In this document: positions 41,229 to 60,208 of the stretch, piece by piece
Layout of the letters: each line of letters begins with the position of its first letter
Numbering within the stretch: position 1 is the first letter of the stretch
Assembly (NCBI GenBank): GCA_964345045.1
Contig: CAYFPM010000001.1
Coordinates: forward strand, 539,264 to 603,263
Source of the DNA: an uncultured Gammaproteobacteria bacterium
Lineage (GTDB): Bacteria > Patescibacteriota > Patescibacteriia > Magasanikbacterales > UBA922
Reading direction: 5' to 3'
Length of the DNA stretch: 64,000 nt
Notes under the pieces: generated by a model
What the model was told of the DNA's origin: nothing
The model's database searches: none
What the model saw: only the letters and a program-made list of their open reading frames with translations
Position numbers and translations under genes: made by a program

Positions 41229-42641
41229 TTATCTTCTATCCAAATATAAACCGTAAAAAATAATTGTTAAGAAAAATGAAGCAAATACTCCGGCCCAAAG
41301 CAATAATTTATTATTCAAAAAATTTCTGTTGTAAACAAGCGGATCGCTGTCTTCGCCATCTATAGTACCATCATCATCACTATCGGCTCTGGCCGGGTCT
41401 GTCCCTTTTTTTACTTCTTCTCCGTCGTTTAGACCATCTTCGTCGCTATCTATATTTTTTGGGTCACTACCACGGATAGATTCATCGGCATCAAGTAGGC
41501 CATCATTGTCGTCGTCTGTGTCAGCATTGTCGCCAGTACCATCTTCGTCAAAATCAAATTGTTCATTTGGATCAACTGGAAAAGCATCGTCACCATCTTC
41601 TACTCCATCGTCATCACTATCTTTTTTGTTTGGATCACTACCCGCAGCTATTTCGTCTCCATCTAGAAGTCCGTCGCCATCGCTATCATTATTCAAAGGA
41701 TCAGTCCCAAGTTCTATTTCTTCGTTATCTGCCAAACCATCTTTATCACTATCGCTACTAGCGGGGTCTGTACCTGCGGCTATTTCTTCTTTGTCATTTA
41801 TACCATCTCCGTCAGTATCTACTTTGGTGGGACTACTACCTTTTTCATATTCTTCTCCATCCAAAATTCCATCTCCATCACTATCTTTGTTATGTGGGTC
41901 ACTGCCCAGTTCTTTTTCTTTGTCGTCTGGTAATCCATCGTTATCGTCGTCTGTGTCAGCATTGTCACCAGTGCCATCACCATCGGCATCGTCCCACTCG
42001 CCGGCATTGTTTGGAAAATTATCATTTTTGTCGTCATAACCATCACCATCTGTATCTTTTTTGTTTGGATCAGTCCCGCCGTCTACTTCTTTTTTGTCTG
42101 CCACGCCATCATCATCTGTATCTACTTTTTTGCTATCTGTACCAAGTTCAGCTTCTTTGGCATCGTTCAGTCCGTCGTTATCATCGTCTGTATCTTCTTT
42201 GTCTCCTACATTGTCTCCATCGGTATCCAAATCTATACTAAAAGAACTAGAGATATTGGCACTTGTGACTTGTTCTCTAGAAACTTCTGTACTGCCACCA
42301 CTTAGATCAATTGCCACAATATCAGTAAGAGCCACCGAAATATTATTTTCTCCTTCTGGCAAAGTATATTCTATCCAAACTTGCTTGGCCTCTTCCAAAA
42401 CCAAATTATTTACTCTGGTTTCTCCAATTTGTTCCCCTTTGTTATAAAACTCGGCAGTGGCGCTAATACTCTGGTAACTATTGTTAACCAAAACTGTATA
42501 AACTTTTACTTTGTCTCCGGCAAAAGCATTTTCGTCGGACAACCAAACACCTTGGGAATTAACAAAACCCACTGTTTGTGTGTAAACAGTAATTGGTAAA
42601 AATAATAAAGCTAAAAATAAAAAAATTTTGACATTTTTCAT
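41229..42641 (-). CDS. secreted calcium-binding protein with many thrombospondin type-3 (DxDxDGxxD) repeats and a C-terminal TM anchor
   Basis: signal peptide; tandem TDDDNDG/DTDGDG repeats; overlapping ORFs in other frames are repeat artefacts. Confidence 0.7.
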   Translation of the reverse strand: MKNVKIFLFLALLFLPITVYTQTVGFVNSQGVWLSDENAFAGDKVKVYTVLVNNSYQSISATAEFYNKGEQIGETRVNNLVLEEAKQVWIEYTLPEGENNISVALTDIVAIDLSGGSTEVSREQVTSANISSSFSIDLDTDGDNVGDKEDTDDDNDGLNDAKEAELGTDSKKVDTDDDGVADKKEVDGGTDPNKKDTDGDGYDDKNDNFPNNAGEWDDADGDGTGDNADTDDDNDGLPDDKEKELGSDPHNKDSDGDGILDGEEYEKGSSPTKVDTDGDGINDKEEIAAGTDPASSDSDKDGLADNEEIELGTDPLNNDSDGDGLLDGDEIAAGSDPNKKDSDDDGVEDGDDAFPVDPNEQFDFDEDGTGDNADTDDDNDGLLDADESIRGSDPKNIDSDEDGLNDGEEVKKGTDPARADSDDDGTIDGEDSDPLVYNRNFLNNKLLLWAGVFASFFLTIIFYGLYLDRR

Positions 42642-42665: not shown

Positions 42666-43565
42666 CTACTCAAAAATTAATTTTTCTGGGTACAACTTTA
42701 GCTTTATATCTCCCATAGTGTCCGTACGCCAAACTGTAGAATTAACCCGCTCTACTCTTTTTAAAACTCTTCTCGACGGATGCCCAAACCTGTTATCTAA
42801 GCCAGCCGAAACTACAAAATGTTCTGGGCTAGTTAGCTGTACAAAAGGCTCTATAGAAGAGCTAGCACTACCATGGTGCCCAGCTTTTAAAACTTCTACA
42901 TCAAGCTTTTCTCCGTATTTGGCTATTAAATATTCTTCTAGAATATCTTCGGCATCTCCTGTAAAAAGTATTTTATTTTCTCCCAAGGAAAGAAAAAAAG
43001 CAATCGAAGCATTATTAGCATTGGCTGGCTTTTCGGAGCCTGGAATACTCGAATCTCTTTCTAAATTATGATCTGGATAAAGGAATTCAATAGAAGAGCT
43101 GGCAAATTGCCAAATTTGTGGCTCTACAATTTGGTGTTTTACTAAATTTTCTTCTGCTACTGTTTGCAAAAAATATTGCCAACTTTTATTTTCTTCTTTT
43201 CCAAATCCGGTATGAATATAATTCTTCACTTCGAATCTTTTCAAAACATCGGTACAACCACCATAGTGGTCTAAATCTGGGTGAGTAACTAGCAAGTAAT
43301 CTATAGTCTTGTCGTAAAAATCCATATTTCTACCCAATGCTTCTAGCACTCTAGCATCAACTGCACAGTCAATTAGCATTTGTGTGCCATCTGGCCATTC
43401 TACAAAAGTAGCATCGCCCTGGCCAATGTCCAAAAAAGTAACTTCGATAAAATCTTTTGTTTTATTCTCTACTACTTTTTGTGGAGAATTTTTTTGACGT
43501 AAAAAAAATAATAGCCCTAAAGTTATTATTAACAAAATCAAAATTGTATAAAATGCTTTTTTCAT
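42666..43565 (-). CDS. ComEC-associated metallo-beta-lactamase-fold protein (C-terminal ComEC module as a separate gene)
   Basis: FLDIGQGDATFVEWPDGTQMLIDCA ... HPDLDHYGG ... GHHGSASS. Confidence 0.7.
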   Translation of the reverse strand: MKKAFYTILILLIITLGLLFFLRQKNSPQKVVENKTKDFIEVTFLDIGQGDATFVEWPDGTQMLIDCAVDARVLEALGRNMDFYDKTIDYLLVTHPDLDHYGGCTDVLKRFEVKNYIHTGFGKEENKSWQYFLQTVAEENLVKHQIVEPQIWQFASSSIEFLYPDHNLERDSSIPGSEKPANANNASIAFFLSLGENKILFTGDAEDILEEYLIAKYGEKLDVEVLKAGHHGSASSSIEPFVQLTSPEHFVVSAGLDNRFGHPSRRVLKRVERVNSTVWRTDTMGDIKLKLYPEKLIFE

Positions 43566-43723
43566 TTTTCTCCTTTAATGTGCTAGAAAGTTAGCATTTA
43601 TAGTAGACAAAGTCAATAATCAAAAAACAGAGTTGTCTTTAACAAAAACAACTCTGTGATTAGGGTGACGTTTGAGATGGTCACCAAAATAAAAACAAAA
43701 GAGCTGATAAGAAATGTTCGCCA

Positions 43724-44089
43724 TTATTCTTTACGAAATGGCCAACCTTTCCCCGTGCACGCAGGACACTTATAGTTTTTCCAACTCTTTCTAAAACAGA
43801 GAGGAGCCTTTTTTTCATTGAGAGTCTGCAAAGGGTATTTGCCTGGTTCCAATATGTAGACAGTGATTTCCCCCATAAACTTATTCTTCATATAAATCCC
43901 CCCGCCTCCACATTTTTGACAAGGCTTAGAACCAACAGGTACCAACACCTGACCAGAGCCTTTGCAAACATGACAATCGTGAACTAGGCGGAAAGTAAAG
44001 AAAAAAAACTCCTTCCCTGTGTGCACCAGCTTACCGGTGCCCGAACAAAACTGGCAATCTCTAGACTCGTAATTCACTTCATGACTCAT
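43724..44089 (-). CDS. small Cys-rich protein with four DnaJ-type CxxCxGxG zinc-finger motifs
   Basis: CQFCSGTG, CHVCKGSG, CQKCGGGG, CPACTGKG. Confidence 0.5.
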   Translation of the reverse strand: MSHEVNYESRDCQFCSGTGKLVHTGKEFFFFTFRLVHDCHVCKGSGQVLVPVGSKPCQKCGGGGIYMKNKFMGEITVYILEPGKYPLQTLNEKKAPLCFRKSWKNYKCPACTGKGWPFRKE

Positions 44090-44141
44090 AGACTAAATCT
44101 CCTTCACCAAGAAGACTAAGTCAAAAATTAATTTATGTCAA

Positions 44142-45599
44142 TCATAAATATATTTTTTTATAAAAAACAAACGACCAAATATACAAAAAAATCATCACCC
44201 AAACAGAAATAGAAAAGTCATAAGCAGCAAATGGCAAGCGAGCAAAAAATTCCACTACCAAAGTCACATACTTCATACCAAGCCACCCAACCCAAGCCAA
44301 TACCAAACCAAAAGGTTCAAAGACAAAAGCCGCAAATACAGCCAAAAATCCAACTAGCATAATCCAAGGAATAAGCCAAAGAATAAGTACATTTACAATT
44401 GGGGCAACAAAAGACAATCTCCCAAATTGATAGAGAATAAGTGGTAAGGTAATCGTAATAGCCGAGATAGTTGAAATAAAAGATTCTTTTAGACCCATAA
44501 ATTCTGGAATACTCCTAAATCTCTTTTCCAAAATAGGGTTAAAATAAACCAAACCAATAGTAGCCAAAAAAGATAGTTGAAACCCCGCATCCCACACCAA
44601 CACAAATGGATTGTGTAGGGTCATAACTACAGCAGTAAGGGCCATGGCATTGGCTACTTTATTTCTTCGACCCATTTGCCTGGCGAGAAGCACTAGCACC
44701 CCCATAATCCCTGCTCGCACTACCGAAGCACTAGCTCCGGCAAAAATCACAAATAATATTATCCCCAAAACAATTAGCCAAAAAGCTTTTTTTCTATTTA
44801 TTCGTAAGTTAACAAAAATCGCCATCAAAATGCTGGCTACAATAGTAATGTTGTAACCAGAGATGGCAATAATATGCGTAACCCCCGTAATGTTGAATAA
44901 TTCATTCAAGCTCCCCAGCCCCCCACGATAACCATAGAGCAGCCCCGCCATAAACCCAGCATATGGCTCGTGCCATAGCTGATTTACTTTGCTAGCAACA
45001 GTATTTTTTACTGCAAATACTCCAGACAACACTACGTTCCCCTCCCCTGTCCCTATTTTCTCTATTTTTGGATTTCTACAAATAGCAAACACCCCAAAAT
45101 TGGCCAGGTACATATCGTAGCGAAAGTTATCTATTGGCTCTGGATTTTCTAATTTGCAAGTCAACTCCAACTCATCACCATATTTGTATCTCGGGTATAG
45201 TTGTGATTTAAAGTACAATTTCCTTTTGATTCTGTTTACTGTTTTCTGTTCACTGTTTACTAAAACAATGTACCGAACCCCATATTGCCGTACATCCGGC
45301 TCAGACGAGATATAGCCTGTTATAGTTTCTTTATTTTCCGGTAGTTTAAAATCCTTTGGTAATGCAAAGTTATATCTGGTAAAACCAACGAGAGTAATTA
45401 GTAAACAGTAAATAGTGAACTGAATCTTCTTGTCATCTTTGTAAATAAAAACAAAAGCTACCAAAATAAAGGCAGCCAAGTATATAAAAACGAAATCTAT
45501 TTTTTGATTGATAAGAGATGCTATGGCTATACCAATAAGAAAAAAAAAGCAAAAAGTTAGGAATGTTTTTGATTTGCTGTTTATGATGCCCTTTAACAT
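44142..45599 (-). CDS. comEC: ComEC/Rec2 DNA-uptake channel, membrane (DUF4131 + competence) portion
   Basis: polytopic membrane protein with ComEC-typical segments. Confidence 0.75.
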   Translation of the reverse strand: MLKGIINSKSKTFLTFCFFFLIGIAIASLINQKIDFVFIYLAAFILVAFVFIYKDDKKIQFTIYCLLITLVGFTRYNFALPKDFKLPENKETITGYISSEPDVRQYGVRYIVLVNSEQKTVNRIKRKLYFKSQLYPRYKYGDELELTCKLENPEPIDNFRYDMYLANFGVFAICRNPKIEKIGTGEGNVVLSGVFAVKNTVASKVNQLWHEPYAGFMAGLLYGYRGGLGSLNELFNITGVTHIIAISGYNITIVASILMAIFVNLRINRKKAFWLIVLGIILFVIFAGASASVVRAGIMGVLVLLARQMGRRNKVANAMALTAVVMTLHNPFVLVWDAGFQLSFLATIGLVYFNPILEKRFRSIPEFMGLKESFISTISAITITLPLILYQFGRLSFVAPIVNVLILWLIPWIMLVGFLAVFAAFVFEPFGLVLAWVGWLGMKYVTLVVEFFARLPFAAYDFSISVWVMIFLYIWSFVFYKKIYL

Positions 45600-45617: not shown

Positions 45618-45935
45618 TCATTCCCGCGTACGCGGGAATCCAGTTAGCAAATCATTACCACTCAAGTCCACCCAGTTAGGATTATCTTTTTCAATCAACT
45701 CAACCTTCCAAGCTCGATTCCACTTTTTCAATTGTTTCTCCCTTTTTATGGCATCATTAATACTGGGATACACTTCATAGTAAACCAACATATGGACATT
45801 ATATTTTTTGGTAAAGCCTTCATTCCTACCAAAAGAATGCTCAACCATTCTTCTGGATAAGTTATTAGTAACACCAATATAAAGCGTACCATTACGCTTA
45901 CTTGCTAAAATGTAAACAAAAAAATCCCTCCTCAT
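45618..45935 (-). CDS. GIY-YIG nuclease family protein (UPF0213-like)
   Basis: FFVYILASKRNGTLYIGVTNNLSRRMVEH; its C-terminal FPRTRE is encoded by a GC palindrome. Confidence 0.8.
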   Translation of the reverse strand: MRRDFFVYILASKRNGTLYIGVTNNLSRRMVEHSFGRNEGFTKKYNVHMLVYYEVYPSINDAIKREKQLKKWNRAWKVELIEKDNPNWVDLSGNDLLTGFPRTRE

Positions 45936-45985: not shown

Positions 45986-48900
45986 CTATACAACAACACT
46001 CACCAACCTCCCCTTCACATAAATCACCTTTTTCGGTTCTTTGCCCTCTAGCCATTTTATAACATTCTCTTGTTCTAGAGCTGTTTTCTTCACTTCTTCT
46101 TCACTAATTTCGGCTGGCACTTCTATAGTCGCCCGTACTTTACCATTTACCTGCACCGCGATTTTGACTACATCGTCGACTATTTTTTCTTTGTCATACT
46201 CTGGCCAAACGGATAGTGAAACAAATTCTTCAAATTCAAACATACCCGCAATCTCTTCGGCCAAATGCGGAGCAAATGGAGCCATTAATTTTTGCATGGC
46301 AATAACTGAACTGTAGTTCACTGTAGGAACTTCCTTAGTTCCAATATTCTTTCTTAGGATCATCAATTGGCTCACGGCAGTATTGAATCTCATTCCATCC
46401 AAATCTTCACCAATCTTCTTGATAGATTTGTGCAAAAGCTTTTCAAATTCTGGATTATTCTCACCCATGTACTCCCCATTTTTGTAAACTGCAAAATTGT
46501 CCCCTATATTTTCTTTTAGCTCTGCAAAGTAATCGTACCAACGATCCAAAAATCTGCGTACCCCTTTTACCCCGTCATCATTCCACGGCTTGGTCTGTTC
46601 TAGCGGCCCCATAAACATCTCGTAGGTACGCAAAGTGTCGGCTCCAAACTCATTAACTACATCAGTGGGGTTAATCACATTACCCCAGCGTTTACTCATC
46701 TTTCTATTATCTTCTCCCAATATAAGTCCTTGATGACGATTCTTGGTAAATGGCTCATCGAAATCAATGTAACCTGCATCAAATAAAACCTTGGTAAAAA
46801 AACGTGAGTATAAGAGGTGTCCATTGACATGCTCTTCTCCACCTAGGTAAAAATCTACTGGCATCCAAGCTTTCAAACTTTCTGGAGAAGCAAATTCATT
46901 TTCATTGTTTGGGTCTAGGTAACGGAAGTAATACCAAGAAGAACACATAAATGTATCCAATGTGTCTACCTCGCGCTTCCAACCTGCACCATATTTTTCC
47001 TCTACTCCTTTTTGAAATTCTTCGGAATATGTAAGTGGAGATTGACCAGTTGGTTTAAAATCTACGTCGCTTGGGAGTAATACTGGGAGATCTTTTTCTG
47101 GAACTGGTTTCAAACCAGAAACAAATACTTCTTCCAAAATTGCCGGCTCTACCAAACCAGTCAAATGATCTTCGTTTGCACTGGCATACACTACTCTTGC
47201 ATCAAAGATATTTACTTGTTCGTCTATTTGTTCTTTTTTGATTATAGGATAATTTTTGTCTGCAATAACAACTGTTTCTTGTGGTAAATCTTTTATTGAA
47301 GCAAAATCAAATTGTAATTTTGCTTCATCACGAAATTCTCTTTCTTTTCCATCATTAAATTCTGGTCTTAGCATGGTATCTATCAATACCAATTTGGCAA
47401 TAGGCTGTTTGGTTTTTGCCAAAAGATGAAATGCCACTGGACCACCATGGCTATGAGCTACCACAACGGTATCTTTGTCCAATTTTATATTTTCAAATAA
47501 ATAATTGGCCTGTTCTGTGGCATTTGGTATTTCTGTATTTGGCAAATCTAGCACCACAACTTTGTGACCTTTTGCTTCTACTTGTGCTTTTAACCACGGC
47601 CAAAAATCTGACTCTGCTGTACCACCTCGTCCATGAATAAAAACATATTGTCTTTTGCTCTCTGCTTCTTGTTCATTGACCAGAATTGGCAATGGTGCTC
47701 CCCAAAAACGCTGGCGAGACACAGACCAATCGCGGAGTTTGTATTGAACTTTACTTTCTCCGTAACCACCATCTACAATCTTTTGCAAAATCTTTTTTCT
47801 ACCTTCCTCATAATCAAATCCATCAAATTCTTCTGAATTTATCAATTTAAACTTCTTTTTGTCTTTTTTTATCTCTGCGTAGCTTACAAACTCTTCTTTT
47901 GAATCCACCACACTTATAACTTCCAAACCAAACTTCTTGGCAAATTCATAATCACGTTCGTCTGCTCCAGGCACAGCCATAATAGAACCAGTTCCATAGG
48001 TAGCCAAAACATAATCTGAAATCCACACTGAAATTTCTTTACCGTTTATAGGATTAATAGCTTTTATTCCCTTTAGTTCTACTCCGGTCTTTTCTTTTTG
48101 GGTTTGTCTATCTAATTCTGTTTTCTTGGAAGTTTCTTTTATATACTTTTCAACTTCATCAATATTTTCAACAATTGTTTCTTGTTTCTTGCCTGCCCCG
48201 TTAGCTTGTCTTTCGGGGTTTCTTGTTTCTTCGAGAAGCGTAGCGACGAGCTCATGCTCTGGTGCCAAAACCATAAAAGAAACTCCGTAGATAGTGTCGT
48301 GAGCGGTGGTAAAGACTGGAATTCTGAATTCTGAATTCTGAATTTCAAAATCAATCTCTGCTCCTTCCGAACGCCCAATCCAATTCCTCTGTCTCATCTT
48401 TGTCTCCTCTGGCCAATCAATCTTATCAAGATCTGCCAAAAGTCTGTCGGCATAATCAGTAATTTTCAAATACCATTGCTCCATTTCTTTTTGCACTACC
48501 ACGTCATCACTACGTTCACACTTACCATCTACCACTTGCTCGTTGGCCAGAACTGTTTTACAACCATCACACCAGTTTACACTTTGCTTTTTTCTATAAG
48601 CCAAACCACGCTCGTACATAAGAAGAAAAAACCACTGGGTGAATTTGTAATACCCAGGATCAGAACTACGCACAAACCTATCCCAATCAACCGAAATTCC
48701 AAGAGACTTTACTTGAGACACAAACATCTCACCAGTTTTGTCGATAGTTTCTCTGGGGTGTACATTAGTCTTAATTGCATAATTCTCGGCTGGCAAACCA
48801 AAAGAATCCAAACCAAAAACTTGAAGGACTTTCTTACCCTTCATACGCAAGTAACGAGCATAAATATCGCAGGCAGTATAAACCTCGGCATGGCCTACAT

Positions 48901-49048
48901 GCAGCCCAGATCCAGATGGGTACGGCAGCTGTGGCAGCACATAAGCTTTGTTTTCGGGGGTAGCATCGGCTGGAGTCTTGAACACCTCTTCTTCTTCCCA
49001 TATCTCTTGCCACTTAGCCTCTATCTCTTTTGGGTTATATTCTTTCAT
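45986..49048 (-). CDS. leuS: leucyl-tRNA synthetase with an inserted YdeN/RBBP9-like serine hydrolase domain
   Basis: HVGH class-I motif, CP1 editing domain, KMSKS; residues ~458-645 (YVFIHGRGG...DFWPW...VVAHSHGG) match the Ser_hydrolase fold. Confidence 0.95.
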   Translation of the reverse strand: MKEYNPKEIEAKWQEIWEEEEVFKTPADATPENKAYVLPQLPYPSGSGLHVGHAEVYTACDIYARYLRMKGKKVLQVFGLDSFGLPAENYAIKTNVHPRETIDKTGEMFVSQVKSLGISVDWDRFVRSSDPGYYKFTQWFFLLMYERGLAYRKKQSVNWCDGCKTVLANEQVVDGKCERSDDVVVQKEMEQWYLKITDYADRLLADLDKIDWPEETKMRQRNWIGRSEGAEIDFEIQNSEFRIPVFTTAHDTIYGVSFMVLAPEHELVATLLEETRNPERQANGAGKKQETIVENIDEVEKYIKETSKKTELDRQTQKEKTGVELKGIKAINPINGKEISVWISDYVLATYGTGSIMAVPGADERDYEFAKKFGLEVISVVDSKEEFVSYAEIKKDKKKFKLINSEEFDGFDYEEGRKKILQKIVDGGYGESKVQYKLRDWSVSRQRFWGAPLPILVNEQEAESKRQYVFIHGRGGTAESDFWPWLKAQVEAKGHKVVVLDLPNTEIPNATEQANYLFENIKLDKDTVVVAHSHGGPVAFHLLAKTKQPIAKLVLIDTMLRPEFNDGKEREFRDEAKLQFDFASIKDLPQETVVIADKNYPIIKKEQIDEQVNIFDARVVYASANEDHLTGLVEPAILEEVFVSGLKPVPEKDLPVLLPSDVDFKPTGQSPLTYSEEFQKGVEEKYGAGWKREVDTLDTFMCSSWYYFRYLDPNNENEFASPESLKAWMPVDFYLGGEEHVNGHLLYSRFFTKVLFDAGYIDFDEPFTKNRHQGLILGEDNRKMSKRWGNVINPTDVVNEFGADTLRTYEMFMGPLEQTKPWNDDGVKGVRRFLDRWYDYFAELKENIGDNFAVYKNGEYMGENNPEFEKLLHKSIKKIGEDLDGMRFNTAVSQLMILRKNIGTKEVPTVNYSSVIAMQKLMAPFAPHLAEEIAGMFEFEEFVSLSVWPEYDKEKIVDDVVKIAVQVNGKVRATIEVPAEISEEEVKKTALEQENVIKWLEGKEPKKVIYVKGRLVSVVV

Positions 49049-56075: not shown

Positions 56076-58106
56076 TTACTCTTCCTTAAACTCAATCTTT
56101 CTAATCTTGGATTCTTCGGTGTAAAATTCTAGCACATCACCCACTTCTATTTTTACTTTACCTTCGTAACGCATACCACACTCGGTTCCGCTTGGGACTT
56201 CTTTTTCGGTTTGTTTACCAATTTGCAAGTTTGTAACCTTGCCCAAACCAATTTCTTCACCATCGCGTTTTACTCGAACTTGAGCATCTTTTTTAATCTT
56301 ACCACTCTCGACTCTACCACCTACGGTCATAGCTTTTTTCTCGGTTCGGAAAATAGCCATTACTTTCAAATTTCCCAGTTCGGTAACAATCTTTTCGTGT
56401 TCTAATAATTTTTCTAATTCTTCTTGAGTCCATTTGATAAGGTCATAAATAACTTGAAACTGTAAAAAATTAACTCCTTTTTCTCGCATAGACTCTTCGG
56501 CCATTGGAGTTGGATTAACATGAAAACCAATCACATGCGCTTTTCCAGCTTCGGCTTTGCTGATATCTGATTCATTGATATTTCCCAAACCTTTTCCAAT
56601 AATCTTAATAGCCACTTCGTCGTGTCTGATTTTTTCTAGTGAACCAATAATCGCTTCTAGCGAACCAAGCACATCGGCTTTTATAAGCAAGTTCAAATTT
56701 TTCTTGCCTTCTTCATCTTCACCAGAATCATCACTTTGCAAAACTACGCTAGTTTTTTGCGCTCCGGTCATTTGGCTGTGTTTTTGTTTTACATCAATTT
56801 TTTCTGCGGTTTCGGCTTTGGCTACGTTTAGGATATCTCCTACTTCCGGAGCTACTTTAAAACCAATAATCTGTACTGGCACAGCTGGACCAGCTTCTTC
56901 TATTTGATTACCCTTGTAATCTTTCATGGCTCTTACCTTGCCATAAATTTCGTTGTTTACTACTAGTGGATCATTTTTCTTTAGGGTTCCGGCTTGTACC
57001 AAAATAGTGGCCACCGGGCCTACGTTTTTGTCTTTGTGAGATTCAATCACAGTACCCACAGCTGGGATACCGGCATCGGCTACTATGTTTTCTCCATTCA
57101 TATCGGCCATTAGCAAAAGCACATCTAGAAGTTTATCTATATTTATTTCGTTCTTGGCAGAAATTTCTACCATTGGCACGTCTCCGCCCCAATCTTCGGC
57201 TTGCACACCTTTGCCACTAAGTTCGGTTTTTACTTTTTGTACATCGGCAGTGTCTTTGTCGATTTTGTTAATAGCTACTACAAATGGTAGTTTGGCAGCT
57301 TTGATAATTTGGATTACTTCTTCGGTTTGTGGTTTTACCCCATCGTCGGCAGCTACTACCAAGATAGCCATGTCGGCGACTTTGGCACCACGGCTACGCA
57401 TAACTGTAAAGGCTTCGTGACCTGGAGTATCGATAAAGGTGAGGGCTCTTTCTTCTTTGCTTTTTGGATCTTTCCAAACTGTTTGGTAAGCCCCAATGTG
57501 CTGGGTAATTCCTCCGGCTTCGGTATCTATAATATTGGCTTTTCTAATGGTGTCTAGTAATCTGGTTTTTCCGTGGTCTACATGCCCCATCACTACTACT
57601 ACCGGAGATCTGGTGGCTTTGTTTTCTCCTTTTGCCAAAGCATCTTCTAGGACTTCACTTTTTTCTGTTTCTTCTTCTACATTTTCTTCATTTTCTCTAT
57701 TTACAGTAAAACCCAAATCTTCGGCCATAATAGAAGCAGTTTCTATATCCAAGTTTTGGTTTTGGTTGGCCAAAATTCCGTTTTTCATAAGCTCGGTAAT
57801 TACTTGAGCTACAGACATATCTAGTCTTTCGGCAAATTCTTTTACTGTAAGTAAATTTGGCAAAGTTACGGTCTTTCCCATTTCTCTACGCAATTCTTTT
57901 TCTTTTTCTTTACGTTCTTCTTCGGCTTTGCTTTCTTGGGCTTCTATTTCTCTTTTTATGTGTCTCCAACGACGCATTATGGTATTGGCCACTTTGTCGT
58001 CTATCTTAATAGCTTTGGCTCCAATATCAAAACCATGCTTAGGTAATATTTCTAGCATTTTTTTGGGATGGACACGGAGTCTTCTGGCGAGTTCGGTTAC
58101 ATTCAT
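56076..58106 (-). CDS. infB: translation initiation factor IF-2
   Basis: GHVDHGKT G-domain plus the IF-2 C-terminal domains. Confidence 0.95.
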   Translation of the reverse strand: MNVTELARRLRVHPKKMLEILPKHGFDIGAKAIKIDDKVANTIMRRWRHIKREIEAQESKAEEERKEKEKELRREMGKTVTLPNLLTVKEFAERLDMSVAQVITELMKNGILANQNQNLDIETASIMAEDLGFTVNRENEENVEEETEKSEVLEDALAKGENKATRSPVVVVMGHVDHGKTRLLDTIRKANIIDTEAGGITQHIGAYQTVWKDPKSKEERALTFIDTPGHEAFTVMRSRGAKVADMAILVVAADDGVKPQTEEVIQIIKAAKLPFVVAINKIDKDTADVQKVKTELSGKGVQAEDWGGDVPMVEISAKNEINIDKLLDVLLLMADMNGENIVADAGIPAVGTVIESHKDKNVGPVATILVQAGTLKKNDPLVVNNEIYGKVRAMKDYKGNQIEEAGPAVPVQIIGFKVAPEVGDILNVAKAETAEKIDVKQKHSQMTGAQKTSVVLQSDDSGEDEEGKKNLNLLIKADVLGSLEAIIGSLEKIRHDEVAIKIIGKGLGNINESDISKAEAGKAHVIGFHVNPTPMAEESMREKGVNFLQFQVIYDLIKWTQEELEKLLEHEKIVTELGNLKVMAIFRTEKKAMTVGGRVESGKIKKDAQVRVKRDGEEIGLGKVTNLQIGKQTEKEVPSGTECGMRYEGKVKIEVGDVLEFYTEESKIRKIEFKEE

Positions 58107-58114
58107 AAGGTATA

Positions 58115-58144
58115 TACGAAATACGAAATATACGAAAGTACGAA
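58115..58144 (-). promoter_or_regulatory. four tandem TTCGTA repeats (gene orientation; spacing 8/9/7) ending 8 nt before the infB ATG
   Basis: read directly in the sequence. Confidence 0.4.
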
Positions 58145-58245
58145 ATTTTGTATTTTATTTTTAAAAAGTGAGTATTATAATTTACCTGATTGTATCTAAA
58201 TTTAGCGAAAAAGTCAAGATTAGGCTTTGGCCAAGTAAAAATAGC

Positions 58246-58275
58246 TTGACATTATTATATTTTTAATGATAAAAT
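58246..58275 (+). promoter_or_regulatory. sigma70-like promoter TAGCTTGACA-N18-TAAAAT driving a ~200-nt structured leader
   Basis: read directly in the sequence; shares the TAGCTTGACA context with the 565-593 promoter. Confidence 0.4.
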
Positions 58276-58380
58276 TTTTCACTATGTATTTTTTGGAGGC
58301 TCTGCATGGCTATATGTGAGTTTTCATTTTTATTAAGAAGACTTAATTGTTCTTTACAGGATAGATAGGAATAAAAAATA

Positions 58381-58436
58381 AAGAGATCGTGAGCAAATGG
58401 CTTATATATGGAGCTTTTTGTTCGCGATCTCTTTGA
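58381..58436 (+). other. 18-bp RNA hairpin in the nhaA leader (AAAGAGATCGTGAGCAAA ... TTGTTCGCGATCTCTTT) with two G-U wobbles that form only on the plus-strand RNA
   Basis: read directly in the sequence. Confidence 0.45.
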
Positions 58437-58485
58437 GATCAAATGATAATGGCGCATTTGCGCCCAACACAAGAGGAGTACCACA

Positions 58486-59736
58486 GTGTCTCACGAGAAG
58501 GAAGGGCCTCGAAGGCCAATCGACATCATCCAAGAATACTCACTCCCGCTCATCGCGGGGGTGATCGGTGCAATGTTGTGGGCCAATCTGAGCCCACACT
58601 CCTACCACGAGTTCATCCACTTCTCTCCGTTCGCGGAGGGGAACCCCCTGCACGTACTGAACTTCCACTTCCTGATGAACGACTTCGTGATGGTCTTCTT
58701 CTTCGGAATCGCTACCAAGGAGATCACCGAAGCCTGCCTCCCCGAAGGAGACCTCAACCCTCCGAGGAAGGCAGTGAACCCGCTGCTGGGAACGCTGGGA
58801 GGAGTGATTGGACCCATCGCGGTCTACAAACTCTACGTCTACTTCACGGGTGCCGAAGCCATCAGCGAAGGCTGGGGCATCCCCACCGCAACTGACATCG
58901 CGCTCGCGTGGCTACTGGCTCGTGTAGTTTTCGGGAAGAATCACCCAGCAGTGAGCTTCCTGCTCCTGTTGGCCGTGGCCGACGACGGACTCGGACTCGG
59001 CATCATCGCCGTCTTCTACCCAGATCCTTCCCACCCGGTGCAGCCAGCCTACTTGGTACTGGTGGCCATCGCCATGGCTGGCGCGTACTACTTGCGAAGG
59101 AAGAATGTACAGAACTACGGGGTCTACCTCGTAGGGCCAGGAGTTCTCTCCTGGGCCGGCCTTTTCCTGGCACACCTCCACCCAGCGCTCGCGCTGGTGT
59201 TCGTGGTTCCTTTCTTGCCCAACATGGGTCATGACGACGGCATGTACGCGGAGATGAGTACTGGAAAAACGTACCTCGATCCGCTCAACAAGTTCGAACA
59301 CGCTGTCAAGCTGCCAGTGGATCTCGGACTCTTCGGGTTCGGCCTGGCCAACGCTGGGGTGGAGTTCTCGAGCATGGGTCATGGTACCTGGGCAGTTCTG
59401 GCCGGGCTGCTACTCGGCAAGACTGTAGGTATCTTCGGCTTCTCGATGCTCGGCCACCTGAGTGGCAAGGCGCCCCTCCCCGAAGGGATGCGCTGGAACC
59501 ACTTGCTGGTCGCCGGCATCGTGGCAGGTCTCGGTCTGACCGTAGCTCTGTTCGTGGCAGGAGTCGCGTTCACCGAACCTATGTTGCAGGGTGCGGCCAA
59601 GATGGGTGCACTGCTTTCGGCATTCATTGCCCCCATCGCGGTCGTGGCAGGTTTCGTCCTGCGTGTGAAGGACGAAGACAAATCACCCGTCGATCTGAGC
59701 AGTGCTGCCGAAGCGCCAGCCACCAGCAGCAGCTGA
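58486..59736 (+). CDS. nhaA: Na+/H+ antiporter NhaA (GTG start); GC-rich island gene
   Basis: GIPTATDIALAWLLA and LLLLAVADDGLGLGIIAVFY signatures; SD AAGAGGAG at 58471-58478. Confidence 0.85.
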   Translation: MSHEKEGPRRPIDIIQEYSLPLIAGVIGAMLWANLSPHSYHEFIHFSPFAEGNPLHVLNFHFLMNDFVMVFFFGIATKEITEACLPEGDLNPPRKAVNPLLGTLGGVIGPIAVYKLYVYFTGAEAISEGWGIPTATDIALAWLLARVVFGKNHPAVSFLLLLAVADDGLGLGIIAVFYPDPSHPVQPAYLVLVAIAMAGAYYLRRKNVQNYGVYLVGPGVLSWAGLFLAHLHPALALVFVVPFLPNMGHDDGMYAEMSTGKTYLDPLNKFEHAVKLPVDLGLFGFGLANAGVEFSSMGHGTWAVLAGLLLGKTVGIFGFSMLGHLSGKAPLPEGMRWNHLLVAGIVAGLGLTVALFVAGVAFTEPMLQGAAKMGALLSAFIAPIAVVAGFVLRVKDEDKSPVDLSSAAEAPATSSS

Positions 59737-59857
59737 CCCCCACCCACCGCGTTTCCCTTCTGGTATTCTCCAGGAAGCTGTTAGAGGACACAGCGAACAC
59801 GCTATTCATTCCTATCTGTCCTCATTCCCTTTGCCCTTAAAAATATTTTAAGATCAA

Positions 59858-59893
59858 AGGAAAATAAAAAACCCTGTACAGATTAATACAGGG
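59858..59893 (+). terminator. rho-independent terminator (ACCCTGTA ... TACAGGGT + TTTTTT)
   Basis: read directly in the sequence. Confidence 0.65.
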
Positions 59894-59947
59894 TTTTTTG
59901 TTTGCCAAGCCAAAATAACTTTGTTAATCTGATAACAAGGAGGACAA

Positions 59948-60208
59948 ATGTCTGCAAAAAAAGAAAAATTGCATCATTTTTTTCTACACTACCTAATCCT
60001 TATAAGCGCAGGGGTCCTCTACACCCTGGTGTCTCTATTTCTCCTCGTCAGAAAAAAATACTTACAACTACTCCTAAGCATCCGCTTTGGAGTACCGTTC
60101 TTCTTCCAAAAAAAAATCCCAAAACCACTGCACCGTCCATCTCTCCGAAAAGCCCTAGAATCTATTGGAGATAGAGAAGATGATAGAACATTTTTTGAAG
60201 CAGACTAA
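59948..60208 (+). CDS. small membrane protein (86 aa), SD-led
   Basis: SD AAGGAGG at 59934-59940; hydrophobic core. Confidence 0.35.
   Translation: MSAKKEKLHHFFLHYLILISAGVLYTLVSLFLLVRKKYLQLLLSIRFGVPFFFQKKIPKPLHRPSLRKALESIGDREDDRTFFEAD

Follow-up and report, generated by a model that had tools for sequence, protein, structure and literature searches.

An ordinary two-gene comEC and an unconserved CxxCxGxG zinc-finger gene at its junction in a Magasanikbacterales genome

The window analysed here is a stretch of 64,000 nt taken from the forward strand of contig CAYFPM010000001.1 in assembly GCA_964345045.1 (positions 539,264-603,263), whose source belongs to the GTDB lineage Bacteria; Patescibacteriota; Patescibacteriia; Magasanikbacterales; UBA922. 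Three genes from the ORF list, all on the minus strand, make up the locus: the membrane half of comEC (ComEC-N), a 121-aa ORF encoding a putative zinc-finger protein, and a stand-alone MBL protein. Coordinates are exactly those of a first-pass annotation, which had described the membrane and MBL modules of comEC as separate genes on the same strand. Pfam and TIGR00361 matches, together with collinearity with fused ComEC, bear out this description. The features of the locus are collected in Table 1; Rfam gave no match anywhere in the 64-kb window at gathering thresholds.

Table 1. Features of the comEC locus, in the order of the minus strand (positions are those of the window)
Feature	Position	Strand	Basis
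comEC membrane half ComEC-N, 485 aa	44142..45599	-	ORF, Pfam, NCBIfam, alignment to fused ComEC
22-nt imperfect direct repeat, upstream copy TTAATTTTTGACTTAGTCTTCT	44110..44131	-	repeat family D1
121-aa zinc-finger gene, four CxxCxGxG	43724..44089	-	ORF, Pfam, motif positions, homologue P0123
Intrinsic-terminator-like hairpin	43627..43657	-	terminator scan, RNA fold
22-nt imperfect direct repeat, downstream copy TTGATTATTGACTTTGTCTACT	43602..43623	-	repeat family D1
comEC MBL half, stand-alone, 299 aa, N-terminal hydrophobic anchor	42666..43565	-	Pfam, TIGR00361, homologues

ComEC-N, the predicted membrane channel half of the DNA-uptake system, matches Competence (PF03772, E=1.5e-48, 166 bits, residues 220-478), DUF4131 of the OB-fold region (PF13567, E=3.6e-14, 53.2 bits against a cut-off of 31.6), and the ComEC_N-term model TIGR00360 (83.6 bits). 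These are the same domains as in the ComEC/Rec2 'DC' profile, which combines DUF4131 and Competence with no fused Lactamase_B. The MBL protein matches Lactamase_B in Pfam (E=4.4e-16) and, in TIGR00361, the ComEC/Rec2 model of 663 positions, it aligns to positions 440-663 (E=2.5e-31), that is, to the C-terminal third of fused ComEC. Its whole-protein score falls under the equivalog cut-off of that model because the protein covers only a third of it. The metal-binding His and Asp residues are kept: HPDxDH and further His/Asp positions (H95, D97, D99, H100, H166, D204, H230/H231, and H262) are invariant across 35 homologues. An N-terminal hydrophobic segment occurs in 61 of 66 stand-alone MBL homologues, and the protein is best described as the membrane-anchored, predicted nuclease half of a two-gene comEC. 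In the topology of ComEC, the MBL domain is expected outside the membrane. When aligned to a fused 795-aa ComEC, ComEC-N residues 22-473 match residues 15-486 and MBL residues 40-290 match residues 542-783, such that the two halves are collinear with the fused protein. A frameshift or assembly error was considered as the cause of the split and rejected: the two-gene form recurs in relatives, and the MBL gene begins with a start codon and a Shine-Dalgarno sequence of its own and encodes an anchor.

Among related genomes, the two-gene state is common. We found it in 41 of 80 loci, mostly from Ca. Magasanikbacteria and other Patescibacteria, always in the same order and on the same strand; a fused comEC was found in 12 of the 80, mainly in Chloroflexota and other non-CPR lineages (as labelled in the records). 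All four of the closest syntenic metagenomic relatives have a split comEC, and the gene order LeuRS, small nuclease, ComEC-N, junction, MBL, TSP3 is kept in the closest relatives. The comparison genomes reach ~61% MBL identity at best. Every one of the best 120 MBL homologues stands alone, with a length of 292-339 aa (~300 aa in most cases), and many come from Ca. Magasanikbacteria; such proteins carry the JGI label 'competence protein ComEC'. The two-gene comEC is thus the normal state in this clade and nothing special. The first-pass annotation had called a holdase-like zinc-finger protein inside a DNA-uptake locus unusual; the zinc-finger gene, which is found in no relative, is indeed so, but the split itself is not.

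One study (PMC6744442) describes the ComEC-MBL fusion as 'essentially absent in CPR bacteria', and gains and losses of ComEC domains are documented in another (PMC6299819). The passages searched in these two studies do not mention a separate MBL gene adjoining ComEC-N. In contrast to a CPR ComEC that lacks the MBL fusion, the MBL module is retained here as a separate, N-terminally anchored protein directly downstream. In Patescibacteria, the ComEC MBL module is usually not missing; a gene of its own, adjacent to that of the channel, encodes it as an anchored protein. Annotations of 'ComEC without MBL' in CPR genomes should therefore be interpreted together with the neighbouring gene.

The protein encoded between the two halves has four CxxCxGxG motifs, which lie at residues 12, 39, 57, and 108 and are separated by spacers of 19, 10, and 43 residues. 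Across all six frames of the window, this motif occurs solely at these four sites, and four copies in one ORF are far above chance. The ORF is preceded by the ribosome-binding site GAAGGAG, 8 nt 5′ of its ATG. The DnaJ CR domain profile (PF00684, DnaJ_CXXCXGXG) scores 38.6 bits against a gathering cut-off of 32.7, with an alignment that spans residues 8-63 only, and hence motifs 1-3. The NCBIfam DnaJ models match over the CR segment alone (17-35 bits against cut-offs above 330), the best match being TIGR02349 (bacterial DnaJ), aligned at model positions 158-216 within the CR region. A protein of the DnaJ cysteine-rich type between the comEC halves, as first annotated, is therefore present, yet the similarity holds at the level of the motifs and does not extend to DnaJ architecture. 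The CR domain of E. coli DnaJ is compact and the spacers here are unlike it; further, hmmscan found no J-domain or DnaJ_C at E<=1 and returned zinc-finger families alone, such that the protein differs from type I DnaJ (Hsp40) in having neither the J-domain nor the C-terminal client-binding domains.

In consisting of CxxCxGxG motifs only, the protein also resembles a set of small proteins that bind other proteins, namely anti-TRAP, BSD2/ZnJ2, DUF5351, and the phage Q-like proteins. Matches to these families are motif-limited and below family cut-offs: Anti-TRAP (PF15777) scores 25.6 bits against 32, RtpA (NF058604) 26.6 bits against 65, and DUF5351 and BSD2_CRD match weakly in Pfam. PHROG 127 ('anti-termination protein Q-like') matches at motif level, with E=8e-6 for the zinc-finger protein and 5e-7 for its homologue P0123. 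Anti-TRAP has one zinc site per 53-aa chain, whereas the protein studied here combines its four motifs with an insert of 43 residues and a conserved C-terminal CPACxGKGxPF block that it has in common with P0123 only. A sequence search of the PDB gave marginal matches (E = 0.07-0.75) to DnaJ CR structures (2ctt, 1exk) and anti-TRAP, and an AlphaFold2 model built from a two-sequence alignment has a mean pLDDT of 37.8, too low to assign a fold. No signal peptide or transmembrane segment was detected in the zinc-finger protein, which is presumably cytoplasmic. By analogy with the DnaJ CR region and anti-TRAP, its eight conserved cysteines most likely form two Zn(Cys)4 sites, and it may act as a small, rigid, protein-binding module.

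Few homologues of the zinc-finger protein could be found. A word-indexed search of 5.8 billion proteins retrieved the query alone, and 1.84 billion representative proteins, searched exhaustively with HMMER, yielded seven matches. P0123 (109 aa, E=3.3e-9, 39% identity) is the sole one with the full-length architecture, the remainder being repetitive CxxCxGxG proteins; by sequence comparison, the zinc-finger protein is essentially an orphan among these 1.84 billion representatives. P0123 has the same four-motif layout, keeps all eight motif cysteines, and shares the blocks CHVCxGSGQVLV and CPACxGKGxPF. Its cluster is found on contigs of at most 1.2 kb, and the contig that was examined (1.2 kb, 67% GC) carries nothing recognisable nearby. 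A profile search with the two sequences together found nothing beyond these two. When metagenomes were scanned with the alignment of this pair, three matches emerged, each partial and confined to the motifs: two other small four-motif ORFs (L087 and L088) and a DnaJ, none of them next to comEC.

Relatives do not carry the zinc-finger gene. An ORF with at least two CxxCxGxG motifs within 6 kb occurs in none of the 80 related loci, and neither tblastn nor a six-frame motif scan detected a remnant of the gene in 95 loci. It lies next to comEC in none of the 41 split loci and in none of the four closest relatives. The junction between ComEC-N and the MBL gene is itself variable. In 17 loci the two genes overlap (often by 4 nt) or are separated by less than 80 bp; in 10 loci a class I SAM methyltransferase lies between them; and single loci hold an MsrAB gene on the opposite strand or a GC-rich non-coding element. 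Elsewhere the junction holds SOD-like or IS200-like (transposase-like) ORFs, assigned by eye from sequence. Different kinds of insertion are tolerated at the comEC junction; the zinc-finger gene would be one such cargo. It is the only unusual element of the locus, and is not conserved.

The composition of the zinc-finger gene sets it apart from its neighbours. Among 12 neighbouring genes it has the highest GC3 (0.443, against 0.22-0.375) and the poorest codon fit (a CAI-like value of 0.586, against 0.65-0.76), a signal drawn from 122 codons only. The gene lies in a 508-bp cassette bracketed by the two copies of the 22-nt repeat, which are identical at 18 of 22 positions. The upstream copy is 21-42 nt 5′ of the zinc-finger start codon, and the downstream copy is 37-58 nt 5′ of the MBL start codon, directly past the terminator-like hairpin. 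A degenerate 22-nt consensus derived from both copies matches only these two sites in the window, where 0.04 matches would be expected, and shuffling of both intergenic regions reached 18/22 in 2 of 2000 trials. The repeat core TTGACTTWGTCT was considered as a general promoter motif and rejected, because the other seven one-mismatch matches in the window all lie inside genes; the relatives' loci lack this motif. Instead of an insertion scar, the 22-nt repeat could represent a regulatory element common to both sites.

Directly 3′ of the zinc-finger gene, the terminator scan identified a hairpin with a 14-bp stem and a 3-nt loop, followed by TTTTTT (RNA fold of 43615-43725(-): -26.1 kcal/mol, z = -3.95). 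By its position the zinc-finger gene, which has its own Shine-Dalgarno sequence, is probably co-expressed with comEC: it follows ComEC-N on the same strand after a gap of 52 bp in which no terminator lies. A transcript of these two genes would probably end at the hairpin, and the MBL gene would therefore need its own start signal; neither intergenic gap contained a promoter that reached the threshold of a sigma-70 consensus scan.

We consider it likely that the locus represents an ordinary Patescibacteria-type two-gene comEC, into the junction of which an unrelated accessory gene was acquired in one lineage. A channel gene accompanied by a separate, membrane-anchored MBL nuclease gene would be the standard arrangement of the clade, and a single lineage would have gained the accessory zinc-finger gene at the variable ComEC-N/MBL junction. 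Atypical composition, the hairpin, the 22-nt repeat, and the varied junction contents of relatives point to an insertion, and the gene was probably acquired laterally. A gain here rather than a loss elsewhere, and the age of the event, would follow from parsimony. As the split is normal for the group and the zinc-finger gene occurs in no relative, nothing ties this gene to DNA uptake, and its target is presumably not ComEC. The locus has little importance beyond annotation hygiene.

The first-pass annotation had proposed that the holdase-like zinc-finger protein might assist the assembly of the split channel and nuclease. In its broader form, this proposal makes the protein a lineage-specific cytoplasmic holdase, assembly factor, or regulator of the two ComEC polypeptides. 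The position of the gene is in its favour, as it lies between both halves, on the same strand, and close behind ComEC-N with no intervening terminator. So is the precedent of the stand-alone plastid chaperones BSD2/ZnJ2, which bind clients by DnaJ-CR-type motifs (PMC5818400). However, the 41 split loci and the four closest syntenic relatives manage without the gene, an absence that the first-pass annotation had itself named as refuting its proposal, and the protein is a near-orphan among the 1.84 billion representatives. Unrelated genes fill the same junction elsewhere, the terminator-like hairpin uncouples the gene from the MBL gene, and the protein has no export signal with which to reach an MBL domain expected on the extracytoplasmic side, behind its anchor. 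We therefore regard a role in ComEC assembly or regulation as improbable. An action on ComEC would offer a handle on the assembly of a two-piece DNA-import machine, but the comparative evidence opposes it. More improbable still is an extended version, whereby the zinc-finger protein and P0123 form a new family of two-zinc, CR-like mini-proteins that moves between very different bacteria and, in this Magasanikbacteria lineage, was co-opted in the cytoplasm to partner or regulate split ComEC, with the repeat marking cassette insertion targeted to the junction.

The protein might alternatively be a regulator or anti-factor derived from a mobile element or phage, which binds a host protein and inhibits or redirects it, much as anti-TRAP or phage Q-like zinc-finger proteins do, and was dropped at the junction as cargo. 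This would fit the weak matches to Anti-TRAP, RtpA, and PHROG 127, the atypical composition and flanking repeat, and the patchy occurrence of the two members in sequences that differ greatly in GC content. Yet every one of these matches is motif-limited or under its curated cut-off, PADLOC gave no match, and no integrase, transposase, or phage gene adjoins it in the window. We consider this origin unlikely, albeit less so than a role in ComEC; it overlaps with acquisition of an unrelated accessory gene, from which it differs solely in the target assumed. Hardly credible is the idea that the ORF is a chance reading frame or a decayed dnaJ fragment, even though its orphan status in very large databases and its poor structure prediction would both suit it. 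All four perfect CxxCxGxG motifs of the window fall within this one ORF, which has a good Shine-Dalgarno sequence, and the motif spacing differs from that of DnaJ, which argues against a dnaJ fragment. In P0123, the eight cysteines and the extra blocks are kept despite a differing DNA composition, and this indicates selection on the protein.

The comEC locus in the window is divided between two genes, and this division is a genuine, conserved two-gene architecture. Three co-directional open reading frames (ORFs) occupy the minus strand between 42666 and 45599, exactly as the first-pass annotation had placed them. The best curated match of the metallo-beta-lactamase (MBL) protein is the C-terminal third of the ComEC/Rec2 model TIGR00361 (positions 440-663 of 663). 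Both products are collinear with fused ComEC: residues 22-473 of ComEC-N align with its residues 15-486, and residues 40-290 of the MBL protein with 542-783. Each of the best 120 MBL homologues stands alone, at a length of 292-339 aa (most ~300). Many carry the label Candidatus Magasanikbacteria or Patescibacteria, and JGI already names some of them 'competence protein ComEC'. Their HPDxDH motif and other metal-binding His/Asp residues are invariant among 35 aligned sequences. With this alignment, 80 loci were fetched from species-representative genomes. A separate MBL gene with ComEC-N upstream on the same strand was found in 41 loci, and a fused protein of ~790-820 aa in 12, chiefly assigned by record title to Chloroflexota and further non-CPR lineages. 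In the other 27 loci the MBL gene stood alone, several times owing to a short contig. Further, 61 of 66 stand-alone MBL proteins carry an N-terminal hydrophobic anchor, as does the one in the window. Because the arrangement is conserved, collinear with fused ComEC and accompanied by this shared anchor, a frameshift is rejected as its cause. The window DNA is also present in several assemblies from one metagenome project (PRJEB17505).

The split is not new in kind and is ordinary for the clade. A ComEC-MBL fusion is described as 'essentially absent in CPR bacteria' in a passage of Méheust et al. (PMC6744442), and ComEC as having repeatedly gained and lost its Lactamase_B domain in one of Pimentel and Zhang 2018 (PMC6299819). 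These passages make no mention of the MBL module persisting as a neighbouring gene. Its survival next door to ComEC-N is a small refinement of the published picture, not a discovery.

Features of the comEC locus and of loci compared with it
Feature	Position	Strand	Description
LeuRS	45986-49048	minus	1020 aa; alpha/beta-hydrolase or Ser_hydrolase domain inserted at residues ~469-623
GIY-YIG protein	45618-45935	minus	small stand-alone nuclease-domain protein
ComEC-N	44142-45599	minus	485 aa; DUF4131 and Competence domains of ComEC
22-nt imperfect direct repeat, copy 1	44110-44131	minus	5' of zinc-finger start codon
Zinc-finger protein	43724-44089	minus	121 aa; CxxCxGxG at residues 12, 39, 57, 108
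Terminator-like hairpin	43657-43627	minus	14-bp stem, then TTTTTT
22-nt imperfect direct repeat, copy 2	43602-43623	minus	5' of MBL start codon
MBL protein	42666-43565	minus	299 aa; metallo-beta-lactamase fold
TSP3_bac protein	41229-42641	minus	470 aa; calcium-binding repeats (bacterial thrombospondin type 3)
Junction, relative L090			23-bp gap
Junction, relative L092			125-bp gap
Junction, relative L093			311-bp GC-rich non-coding stretch
Junction, relative L094			msrAB gene, opposite strand
GC-rich element, relative L093	L093:3725-4000		~275 nt, non-coding, at ComEC-N/MBL junction
Four-CxxCxGxG ORF, metagenome contig	L087:1288-1524		small, stand-alone
Four-CxxCxGxG ORF, metagenome contig	L088:237-536		small, stand-alone

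The interval between the two genes holds the zinc-finger gene. The four DnaJ-type CxxCxGxG motifs attributed to its product are borne out by their positions and by a score of 38.6 bits against Pfam DnaJ_CXXCXGXG (cut-off 32.7). A search of the 64-kb window in all six frames shows no other such motif, which excludes a chance origin. A word-indexed search of 5.8 billion proteins matched nothing beyond the protein itself. HMMER, run exhaustively against 1.84 billion cluster representatives, gave seven matches, and the sole full-length one was the remote homologue P0123 (109 aa, E = 3.3e-9). All eight motif cysteines are common to the pair, as are two blocks that extend beyond the bare motif: CHVCxGSGQVLV..G.KPC and, at the C-terminus, CPACxGKGxPF. 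P0123 comes from a 1.2-kb contig of 67% GC with nothing recognisable nearby, and a profile of the two proteins found no further homologues. The existence of P0123 argues that the ORF encodes a real protein under selection.

This protein is not a DnaJ, since profile scans detected neither the J-domain nor the C-terminal domain that belong to DnaJ. It has no hydrophobic segment and so should be cytoplasmic. Its conserved cysteines imply two predicted Zn(Cys)4 centres. If known structures of DnaJ and anti-TRAP are a guide, one of these would be built from motifs 2 and 3, which a 10-residue spacer separates, while a 43-residue insert would be clamped by motifs 1 and 4. At a pLDDT of 37.8 the AlphaFold2 model could not be used, and sequence matches to PDB entries 2ctt, 1exk and 3lcz were marginal. 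Matches to Anti-TRAP, DUF5351, BSD2_CRD and PHROG 127 (Q-like) were all sub-cut-off or motif-limited, and PADLOC gave none. We commit to a small zinc-stabilised protein-binding module, a holdase or inhibitor/adaptor, carried as accessory cargo. Stand-alone DnaJ-CR-like mini-proteins are a known class, and it is a nearly orphan newcomer among them. Small ORFs with four such motifs also occur on two unrelated metagenome contigs (L087, L088), which suggests that CR-like mini-proteins form a diffuse class in bacteria that is still poorly catalogued.

In the four nearest relatives found, whose MBL proteins are 56-61% identical to that of the window, the genes still run LeuRS, small nuclease, ComEC-N, junction, MBL, TSP3-repeat protein, and in three of them synteny extends to downstream Phage_holin_4_2 and AA_kinase genes. 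The junction itself differs in each. Of the 41 split loci, 17 have the two genes overlapping, in many cases by 4 nt, or <80 bp apart, and in ten a class I SAM-dependent methyltransferase of ~200 aa intervenes. Unrelated ORFs fill the junction in others, with superoxide-dismutase-like and IS200-like sequences recognised by eye. Since its contents vary among relatives, the junction is a site where different genes come and go. The zinc-finger gene is one more occupant, seen in this lineage only. The methyltransferase (Methyltransf_11, same strand; Magasanikbacteria-type loci L012, L020, L022, L023, L025, L027, L028, L030, L031 and L032) is a recurrent companion, conserved much better than the zinc-finger gene. 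The GC-rich element in L093, from an AT-rich genome, folds at -134.6 kcal/mol (z = -4.17; 0/200 shuffles fold as well), matches nothing in Rfam and may be an undescribed structured RNA.

The first-pass annotation had proposed that the zinc-finger protein might assist assembly of the split channel and nuclease. Its description of the locus stands and the position of the gene is compatible with such a role, but the functional link to ComEC is not supported. No ORF with at least two CxxCxGxG motifs lies 6 kb or less from the MBL gene in any of the 80 loci, and tblastn and a six-frame motif scan revealed no remnant in all 95 fetched loci. Dozens of relatives thus have the same split without such a protein. 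Further, a cytoplasmic zinc finger and the MBL domain are expected on opposite sides of the membrane. On both grounds, a role in assembly is disfavoured. The occurrence of two members, the zinc-finger protein and P0123, in very different genomic backgrounds argues for lateral transfer. Composition is supporting, not decisive, coming from only 122 codons: within the set of 12 neighbouring genes, no other has a GC3 as high as that of the zinc-finger gene (0.443; others 0.22-0.375) or fits the codon usage as poorly (0.586; others 0.65-0.76).

The zinc-finger gene starts 52 bp past the ComEC-N stop codon, behind a GAAGGAG Shine-Dalgarno sequence, and the terminator scan found no terminator between the two. 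Nowhere in the scanned region is a terminator-like site stronger than the one in the 158-bp spacer on its 3' side (fold z = -3.95). In neither spacer did the scan call a consensus sigma-70 promoter. Judged from this layout, the zinc-finger gene is likely co-transcribed with ComEC-N, leaving the MBL gene transcriptionally separate. In many relatives ComEC-N and MBL overlap by 4 nt and would be translationally coupled, unlike in the window.

The two repeat copies, identical at 18 of 22 positions (TTRATTWTTGACTTWGTCTWCT), bracket a 508-bp unit of leader, zinc-finger gene and terminator. Their degenerate consensus has no other match in the window (0.04 expected), and when the two spacers were shuffled 2000 times, a match as good arose in only 2. 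The element was not found in relatives' loci. We infer either a duplication scar of insertion or a copied expression signal or shared regulatory site. The repeat core was rejected as a general promoter motif, as other near-matches fall inside genes.

Rfam at gathering thresholds matched nothing anywhere in the window. The LeuRS hydrolase insert, unusual within an aminoacyl-tRNA synthetase, follows the editing domain and precedes the second half of the catalytic core, and is kept in L090 (1041 aa) and L093 (1136 aa, plus a NUDIX domain). Between LeuRS and ComEC-N, three of the closest relatives (L090, L092 and L093) have a PDDEXK_3 protein in place of the GIY-YIG protein, which makes this a second variable slot of the syntenic block. 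Directly downstream of the MBL gene, the TSP3_bac protein begins with a signal-like segment and ends in a hydrophobic tail. TSP3-repeat proteins follow MBL in L092, L093 and L094 as well, and L090 has a 470-aa ORF without a recorded domain there. GC content reaches ~50-53% at 1-2000 and 58001-60000, against ~38% for the window.
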